Source: a virus (lineage: Duplodnaviria; Heunggongvirae; Uroviricota; Caudoviricetes). From it: DNA of 64,000 bases. Within the stretch, counting starts at the first letter, position 1. Each line of letters begins with the position of its first letter. Shown piece after piece: positions 11,177-44,763 of the stretch. Location of the stretch: IMG/VR virus record IMGVR_UViG_3300033692_000022; one strand, written 5' to 3'. The notes under the pieces were generated by a model. It ran no database searches. It was not told where the DNA came from and saw only the letters and a program-made list of their open reading frames with translations. The translations under genes and the position numbers were made by a program.

Positions 11177-11593
11177 TTAGCTTATAAGGTCTTTTACTTT
11201 CATAACCTCAAGGCATTCTTTACATACATACTTATCTTTTATCGAGATCAAACCTCTGGTGTTAGATTCTTCTTTTTCGCACAGAATGCAGGTATTTTCT
11301 TTAAAGTCTACTAAGTACTTATTTTCTCCTATCCTGGACACGCTATATCTCTGACCTTCTTTGAGGTTTAGAAAGTTAACTATGTCCTTTGGAATCACTA
11401 CTTCATTATATTCAATTTTTTGTTTAAACTTGCCACTACAATCTTTACATACTTCTCTACTCCCACATTCTCTTCTTATAAGTTCTAGTTCACTAAAACT
11501 CCTTATATCAATACATACTTCTGCTCCATCAAGACAGTTTTCTTCGTTATCCTCGCCTACTTTTACTACTGGTCTACTACCTAGTTGGTTCAA
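11177..11593 (-). CDS. AbrB/SpoVT-family regulator with C-terminal Zn-binding domain
   Basis: VVIPKDIVNFLNLKEG (AbrB swapped-hairpin core) plus CILC...YVCKECL as in clostridial AbrB; has an N-terminal extension. Confidence 0.75.
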   Translation of the reverse strand: MNQLGSRPVVKVGEDNEENCLDGAEVCIDIRSFSELELIRRECGSREVCKDCSGKFKQKIEYNEVVIPKDIVNFLNLKEGQRYSVSRIGENKYLVDFKENTCILCEKEESNTRGLISIKDKYVCKECLEVMKVKDLIS

Positions 11594-11816: not shown

Positions 11817-11854
11817 CAAAAAAGGGCTAAAAACGGGTATTACATATATAGAAG
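11817..11854 (+). promoter_or_regulatory. 38-bp putative phage promoter motif, copy 2 (upstream of radical SAM operon)
   Basis: CAAAAAAGGGC-N8-GGTATTACATATATAGAAG. Confidence 0.65.
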
Positions 11855-11937: not shown

Positions 11938-13110
11938 ATGCTATTAATTAAGCCAGTACTAAAATGCGACCTAAATTGCGATTACTGTTATGAACATCAG
12001 GAGGGACTTTTAGATTCTGATAAGTCTAATGTTAAAACCGACATAGAAAAGATGAAAGAATCCATAGATAAATGGCACGAATATTTCGGCAACAAAGACT
12101 CAATAACAATCCACGGCGGTGAGCCGCTGCTTTTACCTATAGACGATTTAGAAGAGCTTTTTAGATATTCAAATCAAAAGCTAAAAGAAAATAATTTAGA
12201 TAAACATGTAGGTCTGCAGACAAACGGTAATTTAATAACTGATGAACACATAGATCTATTCGAAAAGTATGATGTTGGGGTTGGAATATCACTTGATGGA
12301 TTTGGGGAACTAAACGACATGAGAGGTTACCCAGACTTAGATCGCACAAGACAATATACAGAAGAGCTTGAAGAGACCATCAAAAAGATTAGAGACAGAG
12401 GTATAGGAATAGGTTTTATATCAGTATTACACCAGGGCAATGTTGGAACTGATGAAAAACTAGATAAGTTTGTAGAATTTTTAGGTAAGCTGGAAAATGA
12501 ATACGACATAAAAGGAGGCAGATTAAATCTTGCCTATATTGATGGGAACACTCCAGAAATAGAACTTAGCCGAGAAAGAGCTTCTGAAGTATATCAAAGA
12601 CTTGCAGAGTATGTACTGAGCAGCCCGATGGGGTATGGAGTAGGATGCTGCACGCAGACCAAATGCGAGCCATTTAGAACACCTGCTGGAAGAGTAGTTT
12701 TACCAGATGGAGAACTATCTACCTGCGTTAAGCATGTAGACGACGAAGGTAACCCCTTGCCCTATGATGAGGATAGCTTTACTGGAAGACATGAATATTT
12801 GTTACAGACAGGCTGTAAGGGATGTAGATTCTGGAAGGTATGTTACGGTGGCTGCCCGGGTAGAGGAAGAAATGAAGATTACATGCAAAAAGACCATTTC
12901 TGCAAAGCAATCTTTGAGACTTATGCTTTTATTACAGATAAAATGCACGGCTTATTTCCACATCTTGACTTTGCTGTAGACGAACCTATAAGAGCAGAAA
13001 GAGAACACATAGACTATAAAAGAAGATCGGGCAGACAAAGTAAGCATAACCCATTTAAAAGAATGCACCGTCAGAGATCTCTTTATGATAGTCATTTTAA
13101 AAACAGATAG
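11938..13110 (+). CDS. radical SAM enzyme with C-terminal SPASM-like Cys cluster, probable peptide maturase
   Basis: CDLNCDYC (CxxxCxxC), HGGEPLL, QTNG, ISLDG; C-terminal GCC..CEPF..C..CKGCRFWKVCYGGCP..C. Confidence 0.9.
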   Translation: MLLIKPVLKCDLNCDYCYEHQEGLLDSDKSNVKTDIEKMKESIDKWHEYFGNKDSITIHGGEPLLLPIDDLEELFRYSNQKLKENNLDKHVGLQTNGNLITDEHIDLFEKYDVGVGISLDGFGELNDMRGYPDLDRTRQYTEELEETIKKIRDRGIGIGFISVLHQGNVGTDEKLDKFVEFLGKLENEYDIKGGRLNLAYIDGNTPEIELSRERASEVYQRLAEYVLSSPMGYGVGCCTQTKCEPFRTPAGRVVLPDGELSTCVKHVDDEGNPLPYDEDSFTGRHEYLLQTGCKGCRFWKVCYGGCPGRGRNEDYMQKDHFCKAIFETYAFITDKMHGLFPHLDFAVDEPIRAEREHIDYKRRSGRQSKHNPFKRMHRQRSLYDSHFKNR

Positions 13111-13119
13111 GAGGTTTTT

Positions 13120-13425
13120 ATGGGAGGACATACTGACTCAGCACATGAAAATTGGGGAGTTGATTCTGACAGACCACATGGTGGCGAGATAAAAGACGCC
13201 AGAGACATTAGAGATAATTCATCCAATAAGAATGGTAATAAAATATCAAATAATACTCGAAAAGGAAAGCCCATACCAGAATCAGATGATAAAGCTCGCT
13301 GGACCCACTTAGATCATAGCGATTATACTGACACTCACGAAAACACGCCCTATGATGTTCACAGCGATACTGGACATAATGACCATACAAATACCGGTCA
13401 CGATACTCATACAGATATAGGATAA
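13120..13425 (+). CDS. His-x-Asp repeat peptide 1, putative radical SAM substrate
   Basis: AGGAGG RBS; HTD, HLD, HSD, HSD, HND, HTD plus HEN x2, HTN and YTD; directly after the radical SAM gene. Confidence 0.75.
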   Translation: MGGHTDSAHENWGVDSDRPHGGEIKDARDIRDNSSNKNGNKISNNTRKGKPIPESDDKARWTHLDHSDYTDTHENTPYDVHSDTGHNDHTNTGHDTHTDIG

Positions 13426-13457
13426 TAATTTAAAGAAGAAAAAGAGAGGTGATAATT

Positions 13458-13793
13458 ATGTCTGATGTAGATGATGCTCATGATGATAATTCTGGTGGTG
13501 GATATACGGACAGCCATGTAGACGGCTATGGAGACCACGGAGATGCAGGATACGATGCCGGTAGTAGTTATGATGCCCACTCAGACCATGGCGCTTATGA
13601 CGATGCCGGTTATGGTGACTCAGGTCACGACAATGATAGCCACGATACTCACAGTGACCACGATACCCATACAAACTCGGGTCATGATACTCACAGTGAT
13701 TATGGCCACGATAATCATTCCGATGGAATATACAACGATCATATGGATCAGGCCCGAGATAACAGTCATAGCGACACTCCAGACGTCTGGTAA
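13458..13793 (+). CDS. His-x-Asp / Tyr-x-Asp repeat peptide 2, putative radical SAM substrate
   Basis: ATG 13458 after GAGGTG; 9 HxD and 5 YxD triplets; HD[TN]H[ST][DN] occurs 4 times. Confidence 0.8.
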   Translation: MSDVDDAHDDNSGGGYTDSHVDGYGDHGDAGYDAGSSYDAHSDHGAYDDAGYGDSGHDNDSHDTHSDHDTHTNSGHDTHSDYGHDNHSDGIYNDHMDQARDNSHSDTPDVW

Positions 13794-13840
13794 CTTTTAG
13801 TATAAAAATGAACTTTATTAGCAAAATTCAAAATCACTGT

Positions 13841-13878
13841 CAAAAAGGCCCTTTAAATAGGTATTATATATATAGAAG
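13841..13878 (+). promoter_or_regulatory. 38-bp putative phage promoter motif, copy 3 (upstream of packaging/tRNA region)
   Basis: CAAAAAGGCCC-N8-GGTATTATATATATAGAAG. Confidence 0.65.
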
Positions 13879-13920
13879 CACTTATTTTAAAACGCAGTGC
13901 TATTTTTAGGAGTGACAGAA

Positions 13921-14058
13921 ATGAAATGCGACAAATGCCACAATCATGTTCAAAAAATACTTTTAGATAAAAAACAGAAGCCCAGTCTGTATGCTTATTA
14001 CTGCAGCAACTGCGGAAACTTCTGGGTAGAGTTAGGAAAAAGCAAAAAAGGCAGTTAA
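13921..14058 (+). CDS. 45-aa zinc-ribbon protein
   Basis: Translated by hand: MKCDKC...CSNCGNFWV; AGGAG RBS. Confidence 0.6.
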   Translation: MKCDKCHNHVQKILLDKKQKPSLYAYYCSNCGNFWVELGKSKKGS

Positions 14059-14126: not shown

Positions 14127-14792
14127 ATGAGCGAATCAGAAGAGATTATTGAAAGCACAGCTGAAGAGAATTATCCATCAGAATGGAATTTATCTGAAGA
14201 AGGAAAGCGCAACATAGCCCATGCTAAAACCGAACAGAAGTTAGAGCACGGACTGTATGCTGGAATTCCTATGATATGCCTCAATGAAAAGTGTCCGTAT
14301 AAAGAGACATGCGGGTACTACAAAAACGATAACGCACCAGAAGGGGAGCGCTGTCCTAAAGAAATTGCTAAAGTATTAAATCTTTACGAAAAGTATAAGA
14401 AACAACTTAAACTAACAGAAGATGATATGGTACAGCTGTCACTACTTAAAGAGGTAATAGACCTCGATATAAAAATAGATAGAGCTGACAGAAAGCAGGC
14501 GGCGGATCCAGACCTTATTAAAGAAGTCCCTGTTGCTGTAAGTGACTCTGGAAGAGTAATAAGAAAACCCGAAGTAGATAAGGTTGCAGAACTTAAGGAT
14601 AGACTATTAGACAGGAGACATAAGATATTAAGTTATCTGAATGCAACTCCAAAAGATAAGTCATCTAAGAAGCTGGAGATTTCTCAGGACCCGAGCACAT
14701 ATGCAGCACAGCTTTTAAAGAAGAAAAAGGAAATTGAAGAATCCAAAACTGTAGAAATAGAGGCTGAAGACAATGGAGAAACAGAGGATTAA
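14127..14792 (+). CDS. probable terminase small subunit
   Basis: Position at the head of the rightward virion region, helical composition and Cys cluster (IC..EKCPY..C..RCP); no definitive motif. Confidence 0.5.
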   Translation: MSESEEIIESTAEENYPSEWNLSEEGKRNIAHAKTEQKLEHGLYAGIPMICLNEKCPYKETCGYYKNDNAPEGERCPKEIAKVLNLYEKYKKQLKLTEDDMVQLSLLKEVIDLDIKIDRADRKQAADPDLIKEVPVAVSDSGRVIRKPEVDKVAELKDRLLDRRHKILSYLNATPKDKSSKKLEISQDPSTYAAQLLKKKKEIEESKTVEIEAEDNGETED

Positions 14793-20508: not shown

Positions 20509-22107
20509 ATGGCTCCAGAATTAACAGAACAAGAACTTAATATGATAGAGATACTTGAGGATCCTGTTAAATTTGCATCTGCAGAACTCGACTGGCACGC
20601 CAGAGAATATCAGGAAGAGATGCTGGGGTCAGATAAAAACAGAGTAGTAATCAGAGCCGGTCGTCGTATTGGTAAGACTGACCAGGCTGTTATTAAGATG
20701 TTACACGCGGCATATACAAAAGAAGATTTTAGAGTATTAGTAGTTACTCCCTTTGAGTCACAGATTAAGCACATATTCCAGAGACTTAGAGCTCTAATCA
20801 GAAAAAGCGATATGGTTAAACAGAGTGTTACCAGAGATATCAGATCCCCCAACAGAATAGAATTTGGTAACGGCTCATATATTGTAGGTTTTACCGCTGG
20901 AACTACCGGCGGAGGCGGCGCAGCAAGCGTTCGTGGACAGGGCGCGGATTTTATTTATCTTGATGAGGCAGATTATTTAGGCGATGACGATATAGATACA
21001 ATCATATCTGTTGCTTATGAGGATGCTGAAAATGTAAGAATCTGGGCAACATCTACTCCAACAGGACGCCGAGGGCGTTTCTGGCAGTGGTGTACCAAAA
21101 AGGAATTGGGATGGCACGAATTTCATTATACATCTCATGTTAACCCTACCTGGTCTGAAGTTGCCGAACGAGATGCACGCAATAACCTTACAGAGCTTGG
21201 TTATGTACACGAGATTCTAGCAGAGTTTGGGGATATGGCAGAAGGGGTATTCCAGCGTAAGTTTGTCGAGAAGGCAGCAGAGGCTGGAAGAGAATTAAAC
21301 TTAGAGTTAGTAGACGATATAGACTATCAAGCTATTAGAACAATCGGTATCGACTGGGACAAGGCTGGGGCGGCAACACAGATTGTTGTAACAGAATATG
21401 ACCCAGAAATAGACAAGTTTTATCCTATCCACAGAGCAGAGATTCCATCTGGAGAGTTCACTTATTCAAATGCTATAGATACAATAGTGGCCTTGAACGA
21501 AGAATTTAATCCAGAATTTATTTATGCAGATCGTGGACACGGAGAATATCAGATAGAGTCACTTCATAAATATGGAATGGCTCATCCTGAGACCGGTCTT
21601 GGAGACAAGGTAAAAGGTATAAGTTTCTCAGATAAGATTAAGATTCCTGATCCACATACAAAAGAGATCGGGAAAAAGCACATCAAACCGTTTATGGTAA
21701 ATACATCGGTTCTACTGTGTGAGAATGAGAGACTGGCCCTGCCATCAAATGATGATCTGATAAAAGAGCAGATGCTCGATTATTATATTGAAAGAGTAAC
21801 TCCAACAGGAAGACCTGTTTATAATAGCGATAATGAGCACGCATTAGATGCTTTCATGCTCAGTCTACTGGCAATGCAGTTAGAGTTTACAGATATAGCA
21901 AAATCAAACTTCTCAAGCAGTGTGGCCACAGCGCCTCGCCTCGACTATGCAAAGCATAGAGAAAAGAAGCAGAAAGAGAAAAAGAAGAGCGAAAAAGCCA
22001 AAGTAGCCTTCTTAAATGCAGGTAAGTCAAGAGGAGTTAATGCTATAAGATCAAGTTTCAGCAGAAACAGAACTTTGAAGAAACCTCCAAAACGGAGTAG
22101 TTTCTAG
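20509..22107 (+). CDS. terL: terminase large subunit
   Basis: Walker A RAGRRIGKT, Walker B IYLDEAD, coupling motif TSTP, RNase H-like nuclease IGIDW...HALDA. Confidence 0.95.
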   Translation: MAPELTEQELNMIEILEDPVKFASAELDWHAREYQEEMLGSDKNRVVIRAGRRIGKTDQAVIKMLHAAYTKEDFRVLVVTPFESQIKHIFQRLRALIRKSDMVKQSVTRDIRSPNRIEFGNGSYIVGFTAGTTGGGGAASVRGQGADFIYLDEADYLGDDDIDTIISVAYEDAENVRIWATSTPTGRRGRFWQWCTKKELGWHEFHYTSHVNPTWSEVAERDARNNLTELGYVHEILAEFGDMAEGVFQRKFVEKAAEAGRELNLELVDDIDYQAIRTIGIDWDKAGAATQIVVTEYDPEIDKFYPIHRAEIPSGEFTYSNAIDTIVALNEEFNPEFIYADRGHGEYQIESLHKYGMAHPETGLGDKVKGISFSDKIKIPDPHTKEIGKKHIKPFMVNTSVLLCENERLALPSNDDLIKEQMLDYYIERVTPTGRPVYNSDNEHALDAFMLSLLAMQLEFTDIAKSNFSSSVATAPRLDYAKHREKKQKEKKKSEKAKVAFLNAGKSRGVNAIRSSFSRNRTLKKPPKRSSF

Positions 22108-26103: not shown

Positions 26104-28188
26104 TTGATGAAGATACTCCAGAAAATCGGAAACTTCTTCAATCGTGTGATAAACGTCAGGAACGCATCTCCTCAAGATTATAATCCCAAGAATGTAAGAA
26201 TTAAAAAGGTTGGGCGGGCAACGCTCACTAGTGGTGGAGGTGGAGACACTTTCGAACCACCAGAATGGGACTTTAATCAGATAGATGATGCCTATTCTAC
26301 ATCGTCTTATACAAGACAGGCAATCGACAAATACATCGAGCTGATGTTCAAGGAATCATACGATTTTGTGGGGCCAACTCCAGATACAATCGAATATATA
26401 AGAAAAAGATTTAAGATGATGGCTATTGCTACAGGTAAACCTGTTAAACAGTTCTTTACTGAGATGGCAGAAGACTTAGTTAAATACTCAAATGTATTTA
26501 TAGTAAAAGCCAGACAGAAAAACTCCAAAGGTCTGCAAATGCAGGGCAAGAGTCTTACAGGAGTTACAGGAAATCAGCCAATAGCTGGTTACTTTCTATT
26601 AAGTCCCACAACCGTAAGTATTCTTCGAGATGAACACGGAACTATAAAGAAGTACGAACAGGAAGTGCCCGGTAATGGAGATCCGATAGAGTTTAAACCA
26701 GAAGATGTAATACATATCTACTATAAAAAGGACAGAGGTAAGGCATTTGGACAACCATTTATCCTGCCGGTTCTTGATGATATAAGAGCTTTAAGAGAGG
26801 CAGAAGAGAGCGTTTTAAGACTTTTATACAGACATCTCTTCCCATTATATCAGTATAAAGTAGGTATTGCAGAGCCTGGATTCGAGGCTGATGATAAAGA
26901 GATTGAAAATGTAAGACAGCAGATAGAGAACATGCCGGCAGACGGCGGTATAGTCACACCAGAGAGGCATGATATAAAAGTTATCGGTGCTGACGGTGAG
27001 GCGATAGACGCTAAAGATTATCTTGAGCATTTCGAAAAGAGGGTCTTTACTGGTCTTGGGGTTTCATCTACAGTAATGGGACGCGGCGATACAGCCAACC
27101 GTTCAACGGCTGATAACATGACAAAGGAAATGCACGACAGAATAAAAGCCTTCCAGGAAGTAATGTCAACATTCGTAAATGAATTTGTAATCCAGGAGAT
27201 GCTTTTAGAAGCCGGGTATGATCCTATAGAAAATCCAGATGACGCAGTAGAATTCCAGTTTAGAGAAATAGATACTGAACTTAAGATAAAGAAAGAAAAC
27301 CATGCAGTCTACAAGTATGAACACAATGCAATAACTGAAGATGAAATGAGAAAAGAGTTAGGCTTAGATCCTATTCAAGATAGAGCCTTAATGCACGTTA
27401 ATTTAGTTGGCGGCGCAAACCAGGATGGAGATAGTGAAGGTTCTTCTGCTGAGACAGATAACAAAAACAAACCAGAAAACCAGAGCGGCTCCAGGGACGC
27501 ACCAAAGACTAAAGAGATGGCAGAGGCAATGACCTCAAGTGCATTCACTAAGGAGCTTGACTATAAGGTCCATGAAGAAAAACTCTTAAAATATTATGAT
27601 AATGCTAAAAAAGACATACTTGATTTAACAGAGAAATTCTTCGAGGATGAAAAGAAAAAATATCCTAATAATACTCAGAATATAAAAGCCACTCTAAAAT
27701 CACTTTCCAGAACATCACTTTCTGCAAGCGAAGATAAGTTTAATACAGCCTTCCATTCAGGAGTAATTGAAGCGATGGGAGACTTAAAGGCTAAATCACT
27801 TCCTGATATATCCTACCAGACAGCGAGTATGAAGTTAGAAAGAACCCACGATAAATACTTTAATAAGCTCGCAGACGAACTTGCAGATCTAATCTCAGAA
27901 GCCATAAAAGAAAATGAAAAAGACAGAGCTAAAAGTAAAGTCAAAAACCTACTCAATGCTCATGAATATAGAATAAGATTTATTGCATTTACAGAGCTCA
28001 TGCACTCATTTAACTATGGGTATGCACTGACTGCTAAAGAACTTGGAGAAAAGGAAATAACAGTAAAGCACGAAGAAGATGCTTGTGATTTATGTGCAGA
28101 AAAAACTGCCATTGATTTAACAGTTGACAACCTGTATGAAGCGGTCCCACCGTTCCATACAAAATGTAGCTGCACTTTATATAAATAA
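26104..28188 (+). CDS. portal protein with C-terminal MuF/gp7-like head-morphogenesis domain
   Basis: Portal-like core (PEDVIHIYY...GQPFILPV) between terL and the protease; C-terminus RFIAFTELMHSFNYG...CDLC...PPFHTKCSC. Confidence 0.85.
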   Translation: MMKILQKIGNFFNRVINVRNASPQDYNPKNVRIKKVGRATLTSGGGGDTFEPPEWDFNQIDDAYSTSSYTRQAIDKYIELMFKESYDFVGPTPDTIEYIRKRFKMMAIATGKPVKQFFTEMAEDLVKYSNVFIVKARQKNSKGLQMQGKSLTGVTGNQPIAGYFLLSPTTVSILRDEHGTIKKYEQEVPGNGDPIEFKPEDVIHIYYKKDRGKAFGQPFILPVLDDIRALREAEESVLRLLYRHLFPLYQYKVGIAEPGFEADDKEIENVRQQIENMPADGGIVTPERHDIKVIGADGEAIDAKDYLEHFEKRVFTGLGVSSTVMGRGDTANRSTADNMTKEMHDRIKAFQEVMSTFVNEFVIQEMLLEAGYDPIENPDDAVEFQFREIDTELKIKKENHAVYKYEHNAITEDEMRKELGLDPIQDRALMHVNLVGGANQDGDSEGSSAETDNKNKPENQSGSRDAPKTKEMAEAMTSSAFTKELDYKVHEEKLLKYYDNAKKDILDLTEKFFEDEKKKYPNNTQNIKATLKSLSRTSLSASEDKFNTAFHSGVIEAMGDLKAKSLPDISYQTASMKLERTHDKYFNKLADELADLISEAIKENEKDRAKSKVKNLLNAHEYRIRFIAFTELMHSFNYGYALTAKELGEKEITVKHEEDACDLCAEKTAIDLTVDNLYEAVPPFHTKCSCTLYK

Positions 28189-42423: not shown

Positions 42424-44763
42424 ATGCCAGCACTTACAAACAATTTACCGGGCTTTAAGACAGAGCTCAAAGATGGTGGACTAAGCATTTCAAATAACAC
42501 TAATGCTTCCACAAACAGCATTTTACTGCTTGGTACTGCAGTAGACGGCCCAGTTAAGGTTCCAGTACCTGTTTCCAGATTAGAAGATGGAAAAACAATT
42601 TTTGGCAAAATAAGCGAATATGGAGTTAGTAATGGTGCAACACTTTTAAGAGGACTTCATGAGGCTTGGAATGCAGGTGCACGTGATGTTAGATTGATGC
42701 GTGTTACAGGTTCTGAGGCTGAAGGAGAAATCAACGCTGATACTATTACTACAAATATCCGCCGCGAAAAGCACGAAAATCTTGGACTGGCAAGCGGTAA
42801 CTTAGAGTTTACATTCACTTTAGCAAACGCTCCAGTTTATGATAAGGATAGAATGACAGTATATGCCAACGGGTATGAGATAAGCCCTGATGACATAACT
42901 GTTGATACTGCAACTGGTGAAGTTACTGTTGCCAAAAACGCAGTAGATAGTGACGCTGAAATTAGCATTCAGTACACATATCCAAATGAGACAGTGCATT
43001 CTGTAACTGGCGAGAACATGGTTTCAAACGACCAGTTAGATTACATTTCTCAGAACGGATATATTAACTTCGTAGGCGGCAGTGAGATCGTGTATGTTAA
43101 CGGTACAGAACAGACAGAGGGAACAGACTACACAGTAGATGAAACCTCTGGTACTATCACATTCATGAGTGCTCTTGCAGAGTCAGACGAAGTTACAGCT
43201 GACTTCGACTACACAGAAACTGAAGATATCACTACATCTGAAAGTACAGATGGTGCCGGTGATAAATGGGTAGCTGCAGGATCAGCACAGGTTATGGACG
43301 TTGAGTATAAAGCTATAGCAACATCAGTTAATCTTTATGCTGACGGTCAGCCAGTAGCAGACGATGGATTTAGTGTTAACTCCGACCAGAAGAAAGTTAT
43401 CTTAAATAGTGGATATGCTCCAGTAAATGCTTCACTTACTGTATCTTATGTCTACAGAACAACAAAGACAGAAACTCCATCTATTGAGTTAACTTCTATC
43501 TATGGAGGTAGCCTATATAACAACATCACAGCAGCCGTTGAAGATATGGTAGATGAAAATGGTACTGTAATAGGTAAGAAAGTTGTTATTACTAAGCCTG
43601 CAGAAAAGAAGGCTGAGATGGACGAGGAACCTCTGGAGTACTCTTCAGTAGAATACCCTCGCTTTAATGCACTTGTTAAAGCTATTAATGATGACCCACG
43701 TAACAACATCGTTAATGCTTCAACAGATTACGGTGCAACTCAGACTGTAGACTTACAGCTTGTTCCAGCTAATCCGCTTAAGGGTGGAGACGATGGAATG
43801 GCATTTGGTAAGGACGAGTTATATGAGGTTCTTGCCGGTAAGTATGATGAGGACGGAGAAAAAGTAGAGGAAGGTATCTACGATCTCTTAAGAAACTACA
43901 ATGTAGACATGATTGTCTTACTTGATGGTTTCGCAGACGACGTATTAGCTTCCGACTTGAATGACTTCGCTTATCAGCTTGCAGAGCACTGTGCGACTGT
44001 TAGTGCTCAAAACAATGAGACATTCGGTCTGATCGGAACAAAGTCTATAGCAGATGCGAATCTTGCTGGAGTAAACGACTTTGTTAACAGATTGACTGAA
44101 GACGGTAAAAACGAGTTCGAGCTGAGAAACAAGAATGGAGCCCTAATTATGGATGATGACGGTAACCCTATCGATATTGGAAACAATATTGGTGTTGTTG
44201 CTGGACCTGACTTCGTATTCGAGCATCCAGAACTTGGAAACTACTACGCAAATGGTGCAGCTGCTATTGCAGGATTAATTTCAACACTGTCACCAGAAAG
44301 TGCTCCTACAAACAAGAAGGTTAAGGGCGTTAAAGGATTAAGATATACACTTTCCCCTAGCCAGCTTGGAAGGCTTTCTGATAAGCAGTACCTGACAGCA
44401 AGAAGTAAGTACGGTAAAGGTGTTGTAATAACTGACGGCCTAACAGCCGCCCAGCCTACAAGTGATTACGCTAGAATTTCAACAATGCGTATTACTAATG
44501 CTGCCGTATCTACCGTAAGAGAAGAGTCTGATCCTTTCGTTGGTGAACCTAACGAGCTGGAGTACAGAAATGCTCTTGCAACTGCAATCCAGAGCGGTCT
44601 TGACAGAATGAAGGAAAGAGGAGCCTTAAGAGACTTCGAGTTTGCGATTCACTCAAGTCTTCAGGACCAGGTACTTGGAAAAGCCTTAATTGAGCTTACT
44701 TTAGTTCCTGCCTTCGAAATGAGAGAGATCACAACAGTAGTTTCTCTTAAGCCTGAACTGTAA
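42424..44763 (+). CDS. major contractile tail sheath protein
   Basis: LLGTAVDGPV, SAPTNK, GVVITDGLT and ELTLVPAFEMREI sheath patterns; followed by tail tube gene. Confidence 0.9.
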   Translation: MPALTNNLPGFKTELKDGGLSISNNTNASTNSILLLGTAVDGPVKVPVPVSRLEDGKTIFGKISEYGVSNGATLLRGLHEAWNAGARDVRLMRVTGSEAEGEINADTITTNIRREKHENLGLASGNLEFTFTLANAPVYDKDRMTVYANGYEISPDDITVDTATGEVTVAKNAVDSDAEISIQYTYPNETVHSVTGENMVSNDQLDYISQNGYINFVGGSEIVYVNGTEQTEGTDYTVDETSGTITFMSALAESDEVTADFDYTETEDITTSESTDGAGDKWVAAGSAQVMDVEYKAIATSVNLYADGQPVADDGFSVNSDQKKVILNSGYAPVNASLTVSYVYRTTKTETPSIELTSIYGGSLYNNITAAVEDMVDENGTVIGKKVVITKPAEKKAEMDEEPLEYSSVEYPRFNALVKAINDDPRNNIVNASTDYGATQTVDLQLVPANPLKGGDDGMAFGKDELYEVLAGKYDEDGEKVEEGIYDLLRNYNVDMIVLLDGFADDVLASDLNDFAYQLAEHCATVSAQNNETFGLIGTKSIADANLAGVNDFVNRLTEDGKNEFELRNKNGALIMDDDGNPIDIGNNIGVVAGPDFVFEHPELGNYYANGAAAIAGLISTLSPESAPTNKKVKGVKGLRYTLSPSQLGRLSDKQYLTARSKYGKGVVITDGLTAAQPTSDYARISTMRITNAAVSTVREESDPFVGEPNELEYRNALATAIQSGLDRMKERGALRDFEFAIHSSLQDQVLGKALIELTLVPAFEMREITTVVSLKPEL

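Follow-up and report, generated by a model that had tools for sequence, protein, structure and literature searches.

The closest described counterparts of the system that is the subject here, an operon for a radical S-adenosylmethionine (rSAM) enzyme and two small proteins, pepA and pepB, on a 64,000-nucleotide (nt) stretch of tailed-phage DNA (IMG/VR record IMGVR_UViG_3300033692_000022; this whole stretch is referred to as the window), are the triceptide synthases YxdB, OscB/GrrM, HaaB (motif HAA), YhhB (HNR), HtkB (HTK) and ChlB (YDR; PDB 9gm3). By definition, the triceptide motif has an aromatic residue that precedes by two positions the residue attacked at C-beta: YxdB links Tyr C3 to the C-beta of Asp, OscB links Trp to the C-beta of Asn or Asp, and HaaB, YhhB and HtkB form links from His C2 to C-beta. 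These precedents cover His as the first residue and Asp or Asn as the third separately, whereas the combined His-x-Asp motif is uncharacterised. An earlier note on this DNA, made from the letters alone, knew of no characterised His-x-Asp version, and the literature search found no paper on one either: queries for HxDHxD or His-x-Asp repeats returned only kinase, dioxygenase and coatomer motifs, and those combining phage tail fibers with radical SAM returned nothing relevant. Like the enzyme in the window, the triceptide synthases combine an rSAM and a SPASM domain without the N-terminal RRE (the recognition element of RiPPs, peptides that are made on the ribosome and modified after translation), and their substrate is encoded next to them and contains repeated aromatic-x-x triplets. 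The differences are that the triceptide precursors are short peptides, whereas the candidate substrates here are proteins of about 100 amino acids (aa) with 10–17 triplets, and of hundreds of residues in relatives, and that the present system is phage-encoded, comes with no protease or exporter and has a putative chemistry.

Three other systems are pertinent. The Thermus phages Cumys, phiMa and phiLo carry an rSAM gene together with genes for a DUF483-domain protein and an unknown protein, in which repeats are not mentioned (10.1101/2024.08.14.607894). The rSAM of this module belongs to the same family as the enzyme in the window, and the ‘unknown' Cumys protein contains 54 Hx[DN] triplets by our count. 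In contrast to the Thermus phage module, no DUF483-like partner was found here, two small substrates encoded downstream take the place of an upstream fiber-like protein, pepA has a leader-like half of its own, and the locus is found not in the tail module but between parA and the packaging genes. The HXS antiphage system consists of the His-Xaa-Ser repeat effector HxsA, which is matured by the rSAM enzymes HxsB and HxsC, plus HxsD (PMC13128918). The likeness extends to a protein with His-x-small-polar repeats, maturation by rSAM/SPASM enzymes and a setting of phage-host conflict, but HXS is bacterial, its five HxS repeats are part of a secreted protein that binds peptidoglycan, it employs two rSAMs with HxsD, and a change of +8 Da together with N-terminal processing is reported for it. 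The HxsB model gives the enzyme in the window 48 bits against a cut-off of 370, and the phage locus has one rSAM, HxD repeats and no signal peptide. Finally, the anaerobic sulfatase-maturating enzymes (anSME; PDB 4k36-4k39) share the three-cluster rSAM-SPASM fold without an RRE and are of similar length. They differ in that the phage enzyme reaches 87 bits with their model, TIGR03942, for which the cut-off is 349, in that neither a sulfatase nor a C/S-x-P-x-R motif is found near the phage enzyme, and in that the conserved neighbors here are arrays of aromatic-x-Asp triplets.

Set beside these systems, the locus in the window is a variant of a maturation system of a known kind and not a wholly new one, the new element being a branch that lacks the partner protein. 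The reading that we favor, with moderate confidence, is that the three genes form one operon and that its enzyme modifies pepA and pepB at aromatic-x-Asp/Asn triplets, most likely by triceptide-type chemistry. The operon contains the following features.

11938..13110, plus strand: radical SAM/SPASM enzyme, 390 aa in the window (404 aa in other assemblies); Pfam Radical_SAM, phrog_1802
11965..11988, plus strand: CX3CX2C motif (C10, C14, C17) of the SAM-cleaving 4Fe-4S cluster, nearly invariant in the enzyme alignment
12628..12629, plus strand: junction of an in-frame 42-nt deletion that removes 14 aa relative to the assemblies L092, L093, L094 and L095 and all homologues
12646..12903, plus strand: SPASM-type auxiliary-cluster region (C238, C243, C263, C293, C296, C302, C306, C322), with all eight Cys invariant in 30 family members
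12961..13014, plus strand: triplets in the C-terminal tail of the enzyme, HLD (aa 342-344) and HID-Y (aa 357-360)
13120-13425, plus strand: pepA, 101 aa, starting 6 nt after a GGAGG that overlaps the enzyme stop codon
13120..13305, plus strand: conserved, leader-like N-terminal half of pepA (aa 1-62)
13306..13425, plus strand: core of pepA (aa 63-101), an HLD-HSD-YTD run followed by G-H-D-x-H-T-[ND] 8-residue units
13458..13793, plus strand: pepB, 111 aa, with 17 aromatic-x-Asp/Asn triplets (12 His, 5 Tyr) and a conserved C-terminal end

The comparisons support the assignment of the enzyme as a phage-encoded rSAM/SPASM protein of the peptide- or protein-modifying type. The hallmarks of a SPASM maturase that the earlier note had read from the letters are in place, namely C10-x3-C14-x2-C17 and the C-terminal cluster C293-x2-C-x5-C-x3-C, and the enzyme also has the SAM-binding GGE motif (G60-G61-E62) and C238, C243, C263 and C322; the match to Pfam Radical_SAM (PF04055) has a score of 72 bits (cut-off 29.5; 6e-20) and that to phrog_1802 an E-value of 2e-25. 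The C-terminal 7-Cys SPASM pattern (CX9-15GX4C ... CX2CX5CX3C ... C) is present, so that two auxiliary clusters are expected, and Pfam SPASM (PF13186) gives no match to the enzyme. The best matches in NCBIfam are cyclophane or cross-link formers (DynA 107 bits, YhhB 93, AmcB 87). Taken together, the curated models XyeB, GrrM/OscB, FxsB, YhhB, AmcB and DynA yield, in descending order of score, 107, 93, 87, 72, 64 and 63 bits, compared with cut-offs of 310–450. Because every curated model is far below its cut-off, the enzyme is not filed in a characterised family; membership of such a family, with another substrate, was an outcome that the earlier note had listed as speaking against its proposal. 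The ratio of nonsynonymous to synonymous substitution rates (dN/dS) of the enzyme is 0.02.

The proteins encoded by pepA and pepB are free of Cys, very hydrophilic and acidic (pI 5.5 and 4.2, respectively), and pepB, with a net charge of -27, is repeat-like throughout and has no leader-like part. The start codon of pepA lies ten bases past the enzyme stop codon and the ATG of pepB (13458) follows pepA after a 32-nt spacer with the ribosome-binding site GAGAGGTG, a spacing of start sites that suggests translational coupling. The earlier note had counted, in two Cys-free open reading frames (ORFs) with good ribosome-binding sites, 6 HxD in pepA and 9 HxD with 5 YxD in pepB, and these counts are exact; [HYFW]-x-[DN] triplets number 10 in pepA and 17 in pepB. 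In a test with 20,000 composition-preserving shuffles, Hx[DN] triplets were in excess both in pepA (9 observed vs 2.8 expected, P 1.5e-4) and in pepB (12 vs 5.0, P 1.5e-4), as were [HYFW]x[DN] triplets in pepB (17 vs 7.9, P<5e-5). The 64-kb window contains no further HxD-rich ORF, structural ones included. Among relatives, the number of pepA units differs in whole 8-residue steps, and the protein repeats are not recent DNA duplications because there is no repeat at the DNA level (no tandem repeat in 13000-13900 according to Tandem Repeats Finder).

It could be argued that pepA and pepB are not genes but chance open frames in low-complexity DNA. Three or four frames are indeed open across 13450-13830, including an antisense ORF of 122 aa, and neither protein matches a Pfam, NCBIfam or PHROG family. 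Among 5.8 billion proteins, pepB has no match and pepA matches itself and one relative only, and a search of 1.84 billion representatives with a pepA profile recovers the leader-like half only in pepA itself; the sequences P0123, P0125 and P0126 that match this profile are unrelated low-complexity or eukaryotic sequences. However, the other frames are open because of skewed composition, and the antisense ORF (13456-13824) and a +1-frame ORF (13528-13800) were dismissed as composition artefacts, given that selection acts on the named frames, where dN is far below dS in comparisons with orthologues. Specifically, pepA and its orthologue from the relative whose enzyme is 95% identical share 87% of the protein and 79% of the DNA sequence (dN 0.07, dS saturated), and dN/dS of pepB is 0.07; both genes are under strong purifying selection. 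Furthermore, the Shine-Dalgarno sites are strong and correctly spaced, the frame is preserved in orthologues from at least five divergent contigs even as the repeat number shifts by whole units, and no frameshifts or stop codons were seen in them. Chance open frames are thus extremely improbable.

Close relatives of the enzyme are few: a search of 5.8 billion proteins and of metagenome and virus collections recovered enzymes with 99%, 95%, about 76% and 63% protein identity, and a contig scan of about 185,000 prokaryote genomes found no member of this clade, so that it yielded neither a prophage nor a host. Where the contigs reach, the gene order in the clade is parA, small ORFs, a divergent AbrB/zinc-finger gene, the rSAM, pepA, pepB, a Zn-ribbon ORF and a 221-aa ORF. 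All relatives with 63–99% identity and a long enough contig have pepA next, and pepB where it is reached (orthologues in L001, L005, L006, L095 and L097), with a second rSAM intervening in L002, the 63%-identical member. The pepA orthologues swap His with Tyr and Asp with Asn (HSD in one, YTN in another), and the tail of the enzyme has HID in the window vs YGD in L002. From this conserved co-occurrence, we infer that pepA and pepB are the most likely substrates of the enzyme, a relationship for which the comparative support is good.

Several peculiarities of the clade members are worth recording. The second rSAM gene of L002 (L002:4917-5927, 336 aa), located between the enzyme and pepA, is unrelated to the first; its product is 28–30% identical to two small rSAMs of the contig L090 (see below), and its best NCBIfam models, PapB and MoaA, remain far below their cut-offs. 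L002 additionally carries a gene of the MarR family near the operon. In the 95%-identical relative, the region directly 5' of the rSAM (L005:3-359) encodes what we take, by eye, to be a NeuB-type sialic-acid synthase, whereas the corresponding region of the window is intergenic; hence gene content near the operon differs even among close relatives. The 170,948-bp record IMGVR_UViG_3300035034_002798 (L006/L007) is a perfect palindrome in which the locus is present twice, at mirrored positions. The record is therefore an artefact of assembly whose unique sequence comes to about 85 kb, and neither its size nor its label ‘inverted terminal repeats' can be trusted.

Beyond the clade, the enzyme is apparently nested, as a derived branch, in the large phage family phrog_1802. 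Of the 254 relatives that were confirmed in a pattern scan of IMG/VR, 80 were examined. The family enzymes are about 30% identical to the one in the window, the Thermus phage enzymes 28–31%, and in a quick maximum likelihood tree the clade of the window (support 100) sits on a long stem inside a family clade of 60 rows (support 95). In the 60-odd loci from IMG/VR and metagenomes with a family rSAM (>=290 bits), nearly all rSAM genes have a neighboring ORF with 10–112 Hx[DN] triplets. This array ORF is usually located just upstream of the rSAM gene, and the array often forms the C-terminal part of a protein with a tail-fiber-type N-terminus. Distant rSAMs (<115 bits to the family profile), which serve as an internal control, mostly have neither an array neighbor nor the partner. 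The neighborhood analysis that the earlier note had called for is therefore in its favor, with HxD neighbors kept in the clade and aromatic-x-Asp/Asn arrays across the family. Of the candidate new RiPP-like system proposed in that note, the rSAM/SPASM maturase with likely adjacent substrates stands, whereas the stand-alone novelty is lost to the position of the enzyme within phrog_1802. The term RiPP itself fits only loosely because the substrates in the family are mostly large tail-fiber-like proteins, not peptides.

Across the family, position 3 of the triplets is Asp or Asn, and position 1 is usually His but also Tyr, Trp or Phe. Thus, the repeat protein L028:77-688, beside a family rSAM, has PF[DS]NT units, and the arrays of L103, L104 (3797-4950) and L105 follow the pattern W/Y/H-x-N/D, with W-x-N and Y-x-D units. 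Contiguous HxDHxD with a period of 3 was considered as the defining unit and discarded, given that the family units have a period of 4–5. The tails of the family enzymes often bear HGD or HGDHTD units themselves, up to 12 triplets (L041:3501-5444, L062:1446-3467, L063:1812-3482, L008:2989-4437), and these substrate-like motifs could be subject to self-modification or have a pseudo-substrate role.

A few loci depart from the common layout. In four of them (L016:1971-2327, L018:4830-5198, L019:4810-5178 and L057:4823-5179), a conserved ORF of 118–122 aa with two HADH[VY]D motifs is found between the rSAM and the partner, on top of the upstream array protein. The family extends to archaeal elements: a 37%-identical rSAM (L003:5001-7093, also in L004) with a partner-like 298-aa neighbor is located among archaeal-type Cdc6/Orc1 genes, and no HxD-rich protein was found within 5 kb of it. 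The 37.6-kb contig L090 encodes a 1135-aa phage-like protein (L090:10001-13408) that opens with SG[HY]DNH[ST][DN] 8-residue units resembling those of pepA, together with four rSAM genes that belong to other families (at most 74 bits with the family profile) and no DUF483-like partner, and may represent a second, independent rSAM-and-repeat system.

The family partner, which is present beside the rSAM in nearly all of the 60-odd loci and comes after it in the usual gene order, is a protein of 270–490 aa with a weak match to DUF483 and, often, a methyltransferase domain. A hidden Markov model (HMM) built from 22 partners, which scored 263–486 bits in control loci, had no match in the six frames of the window or in L001, L002, L005, L006 and L095-L097; none was found in the palindromic record either, in a search that had no positive control. 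The divergent 138-aa gene upstream of the operon is not a DUF483 partner. Recognition of N-terminal ‘PGSLWIEG..LHYID' repeats by the partner was considered and rejected, in view of partnered small substrates without this domain (L024, L064, L101). The substrates in the window are also set apart by being small, free-standing and encoded downstream, whereas those of the family are mostly large fiber-like proteins in the structural module.

The missing partner bears on an alternative in which pepA and pepB remain unmodified and, for instance, store or chaperone metal for the Fe-S enzyme or counter host defenses by mimicking DNA, while the rSAM acts elsewhere, for example, on DNA or RNA. The low pI and high negative charge of pepB fit such a role, and DNA-mimic proteins resemble pepB in charge. 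The absence of the usual DUF483 partner from the loci searched points the same way, and cyanobacterial homologues are linked to deazapurine DNA-modification genes, with DNA modification having been proposed (10.1101/2024.08.14.607894). We nevertheless hold this alternative to be quite improbable, because repeats carried by quite different proteins accompany the enzyme across >60 loci at about 30% identity, because the fold class of the enzyme is that of peptide-modifying SPASM proteins and not of a nucleic-acid enzyme, because the tails of the enzymes bear the same triplets, and because Phe and Trp arrays cannot bind metal. For the last reason, namely that His is replaced by Trp or Phe in related arrays, the motif is unlikely to have been conserved for metal binding, and the suggestion of metal-binding peptides in the earlier note is not borne out in this respect. 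The pattern of any aromatic residue at position 1 would be better explained by a cross-link from the ring to C-beta than by simple metal binding.

In the triceptide-type scheme, which we prefer, a 5'-deoxyadenosyl radical would take a hydrogen from the C-beta of the third residue of a triplet (Asp or Asn), and the resulting C-beta radical would attack the aromatic ring at position 1 (His C2 or Tyr C3). Re-aromatisation would then leave a three-residue cyclophane, with 2 Da lost per triplet, and two disordered acidic proteins would be turned into chains of small rigid rings. The enzyme may directly recognise the conserved N-terminal half of pepA, which would replace the missing DUF483 partner.

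The structural comparisons are compatible with this scheme but also with other outcomes. The best sequence match in PDB is the triceptide synthase ChlB (1e-13), and ChlB (TM 0.67–0.73) and anSME (0.64–0.70), neither of which has an RRE domain, give the best superpositions with a model of the intact enzyme; the fold also matches CteB, and the best Foldseek E-value belongs to anSME. The enzyme could, accordingly, modify the same triplets by some other radical chemistry, such as conversion of Asp toward aminomalonate or a beta-oxidised residue, C-methylation, epimerisation or formation of a C-N or C-O link, and the product would then not be a cyclophane but would chelate metal or mineral strongly. 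In fold and E-values the enzyme is equally close to ChlB and to anSME, a Ser/Cys C-beta oxidase, and no curated cyclophane family is above its cut-off. DynA (dynobactin), the best HMM match, also forms a link from His N to C-beta. The second rSAM of L002 and the methyltransferase domain of many family partners also speak for this possibility, and Asp-to-aminomalonate chemistry is known in RiPP pathways (PMC12186529). We rate this possibility as unlikely: position 1 is always aromatic and yet variable (His, Tyr, Trp, Phe), which is hard to explain if Asp alone were targeted, and Tyr-x-Asp and Trp-x-Asn/Asp are established sites of C-C cross-links.

The copy of the enzyme in the window raises a separate issue. 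The 404-residue form is encoded in four further assemblies, from the same phage or one that is 99% identical (L092, L093 and L094, identical to the window over the compared stretches, and L095, with a 99%-identical enzyme), as well as in all homologues. The 14 residues that are deleted in the window include a family-invariant Leu and a near-invariant Phe, and the junction shows no evident direct repeat. Modeling of the intact enzyme places the segment, as a confident strand and helix, between the barrel and the SPASM domain. The intact form reaches a predicted local distance difference test score (pLDDT) of 81.4 and a predicted template modeling score (pTM) of 0.85, compared with 73.6 and 0.77 for the form in the window, with the region of the deletion under 50. 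The deletion is either a real variant or an assembly error. A predicted complex of the enzyme with SAM, three 4Fe-4S clusters and pepA (score 0.00, pepA pLDDT 25) counts neither way.

A number of points weigh against the triceptide-type reading. Cyclophane chemistry is plausible here by analogy, but the enzyme lies outside every characterised family, including those of the curated cyclophane synthases, and anSME-type or other chemistry fits the fold equally well. All other branches of the family have a DUF483-like partner, so the locus may lack an essential component or have it encoded in another part of the 202-kb genome. The His/Asp-rich acidic proteins could act unmodified, and only one of the two His in each 8-residue unit of pepA is part of a strict H-x-[DN] triplet. 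The 390-aa allele of the enzyme, to judge from the models, may be impaired or inactive.

The source of the window is a giant, uncultured phage of roughly 200 kb with a contractile tail, and the same DNA is present on a 202,621-bp contig in the European Nucleotide Archive. The window contains six tRNA genes, and the closest isolates by the tail sheath are Moorella phage MTATph1 and Bacillus phage 0305phi8-36 (37–40% identity). The rSAM locus is placed between parA and the Zn-ribbon/terminase (packaging) region, outside the tail module. The reference features are as follows.

11177..11593, minus strand: divergent 138-aa gene with an AbrB/antitoxin-like segment and a C4 zinc finger (PHROG 4681, 8e-5; Pfam zf-C4_ClpX, 5e-5)
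20509-22107: terminase
26104-28188: portal
42424-44763: tail sheath

The divergent gene has retained its synteny beside the operon in all clade members and may be a dedicated regulator. No protease, transporter or exporter, and no sulfatase, is found among the neighbors of the operon, and neither pepA nor pepB has a signal peptide or hydrophobic signal segment. Because of the absence of a protease, an exporter and a signal peptide, a secreted antibiotic-like product is unlikely.

The operon is flanked by two copies of a promoter-like motif, and a third copy is found elsewhere in the window.

1653-1690, rightward: third copy of the promoter-like motif
11817..11854, plus strand: promoter-like motif of 38 nt, CAAAAA-GG..C-N8-GGTATTAYATATATAGAAG, 84 nt 5' of the enzyme ATG
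13841..13878, plus strand: second copy, opening the next transcription unit
13921-14058 and 14127-14792, plus strand: the next unit, a Zn-ribbon ORF followed by another ORF, running toward the tRNAs and packaging genes

The 19-mer core GGTATTAYATATATAGAAG occurs three times in the window (1672, 11836 and 13860), compared with 0.05 expected occurrences. Given that the shared motif opens the next rightward unit, co-regulation of the operon with that unit is suggested. The motif which the earlier note described as common to the operon and the packaging region is, indeed, repeated, but the copy at 13860 precedes the next operon and the terminase is 6.6 kb beyond. The copy at 1653-1690 faces rightward amid genes that are all on the minus strand, in a gap (1573-2606) without a listed ORF of at least 110 aa, and is a possible promoter of a small or antisense RNA.

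The promoter motif shared with the next operon and the tail-fiber setting of the related arrays together hint at a virion-associated or late function. By analogy with the fiber arrays of relatives, a particle-associated component is one candidate role for the modified proteins, and an intracellular factor is another. A bolder version, which we put forward tentatively and regard as doubtful, is that the phage makes free-standing proteins of 10–17 consecutive His/Tyr-to-Asp cyclophane rings, that the maturase has shed the otherwise obligatory DUF483 partner and reads the pepA leader, and that the product acts away from the tail fiber, where it might, for instance, serve in superinfection exclusion, in counter-defense or as a particle component that is made late. 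Were this version true, the product would be the first virus-encoded RiPP-like product of triceptide chemistry and the first His-x-Asp cyclophane.

Among the hundreds of loci of the family, the clade offers the simplest experimental system, with one enzyme, two soluble candidate substrates of 100 residues, no large fiber and, in the contigs searched, no partner protein, and the allele with the natural 14-residue deletion is readily available for comparison. Peptide engineers may also take an interest in enzymes able to staple a long chain at many triplets. The rule that emerges across the family, any aromatic residue at position 1 and Asp or Asn at position 3, is a clear and falsifiable prediction. 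If the triceptide-type reading is true, His-x-Asp would be a new cyclophane motif, and phages would be found to apply radical chemistry of the natural-product type, a use for which we found no published report, to their own proteins.

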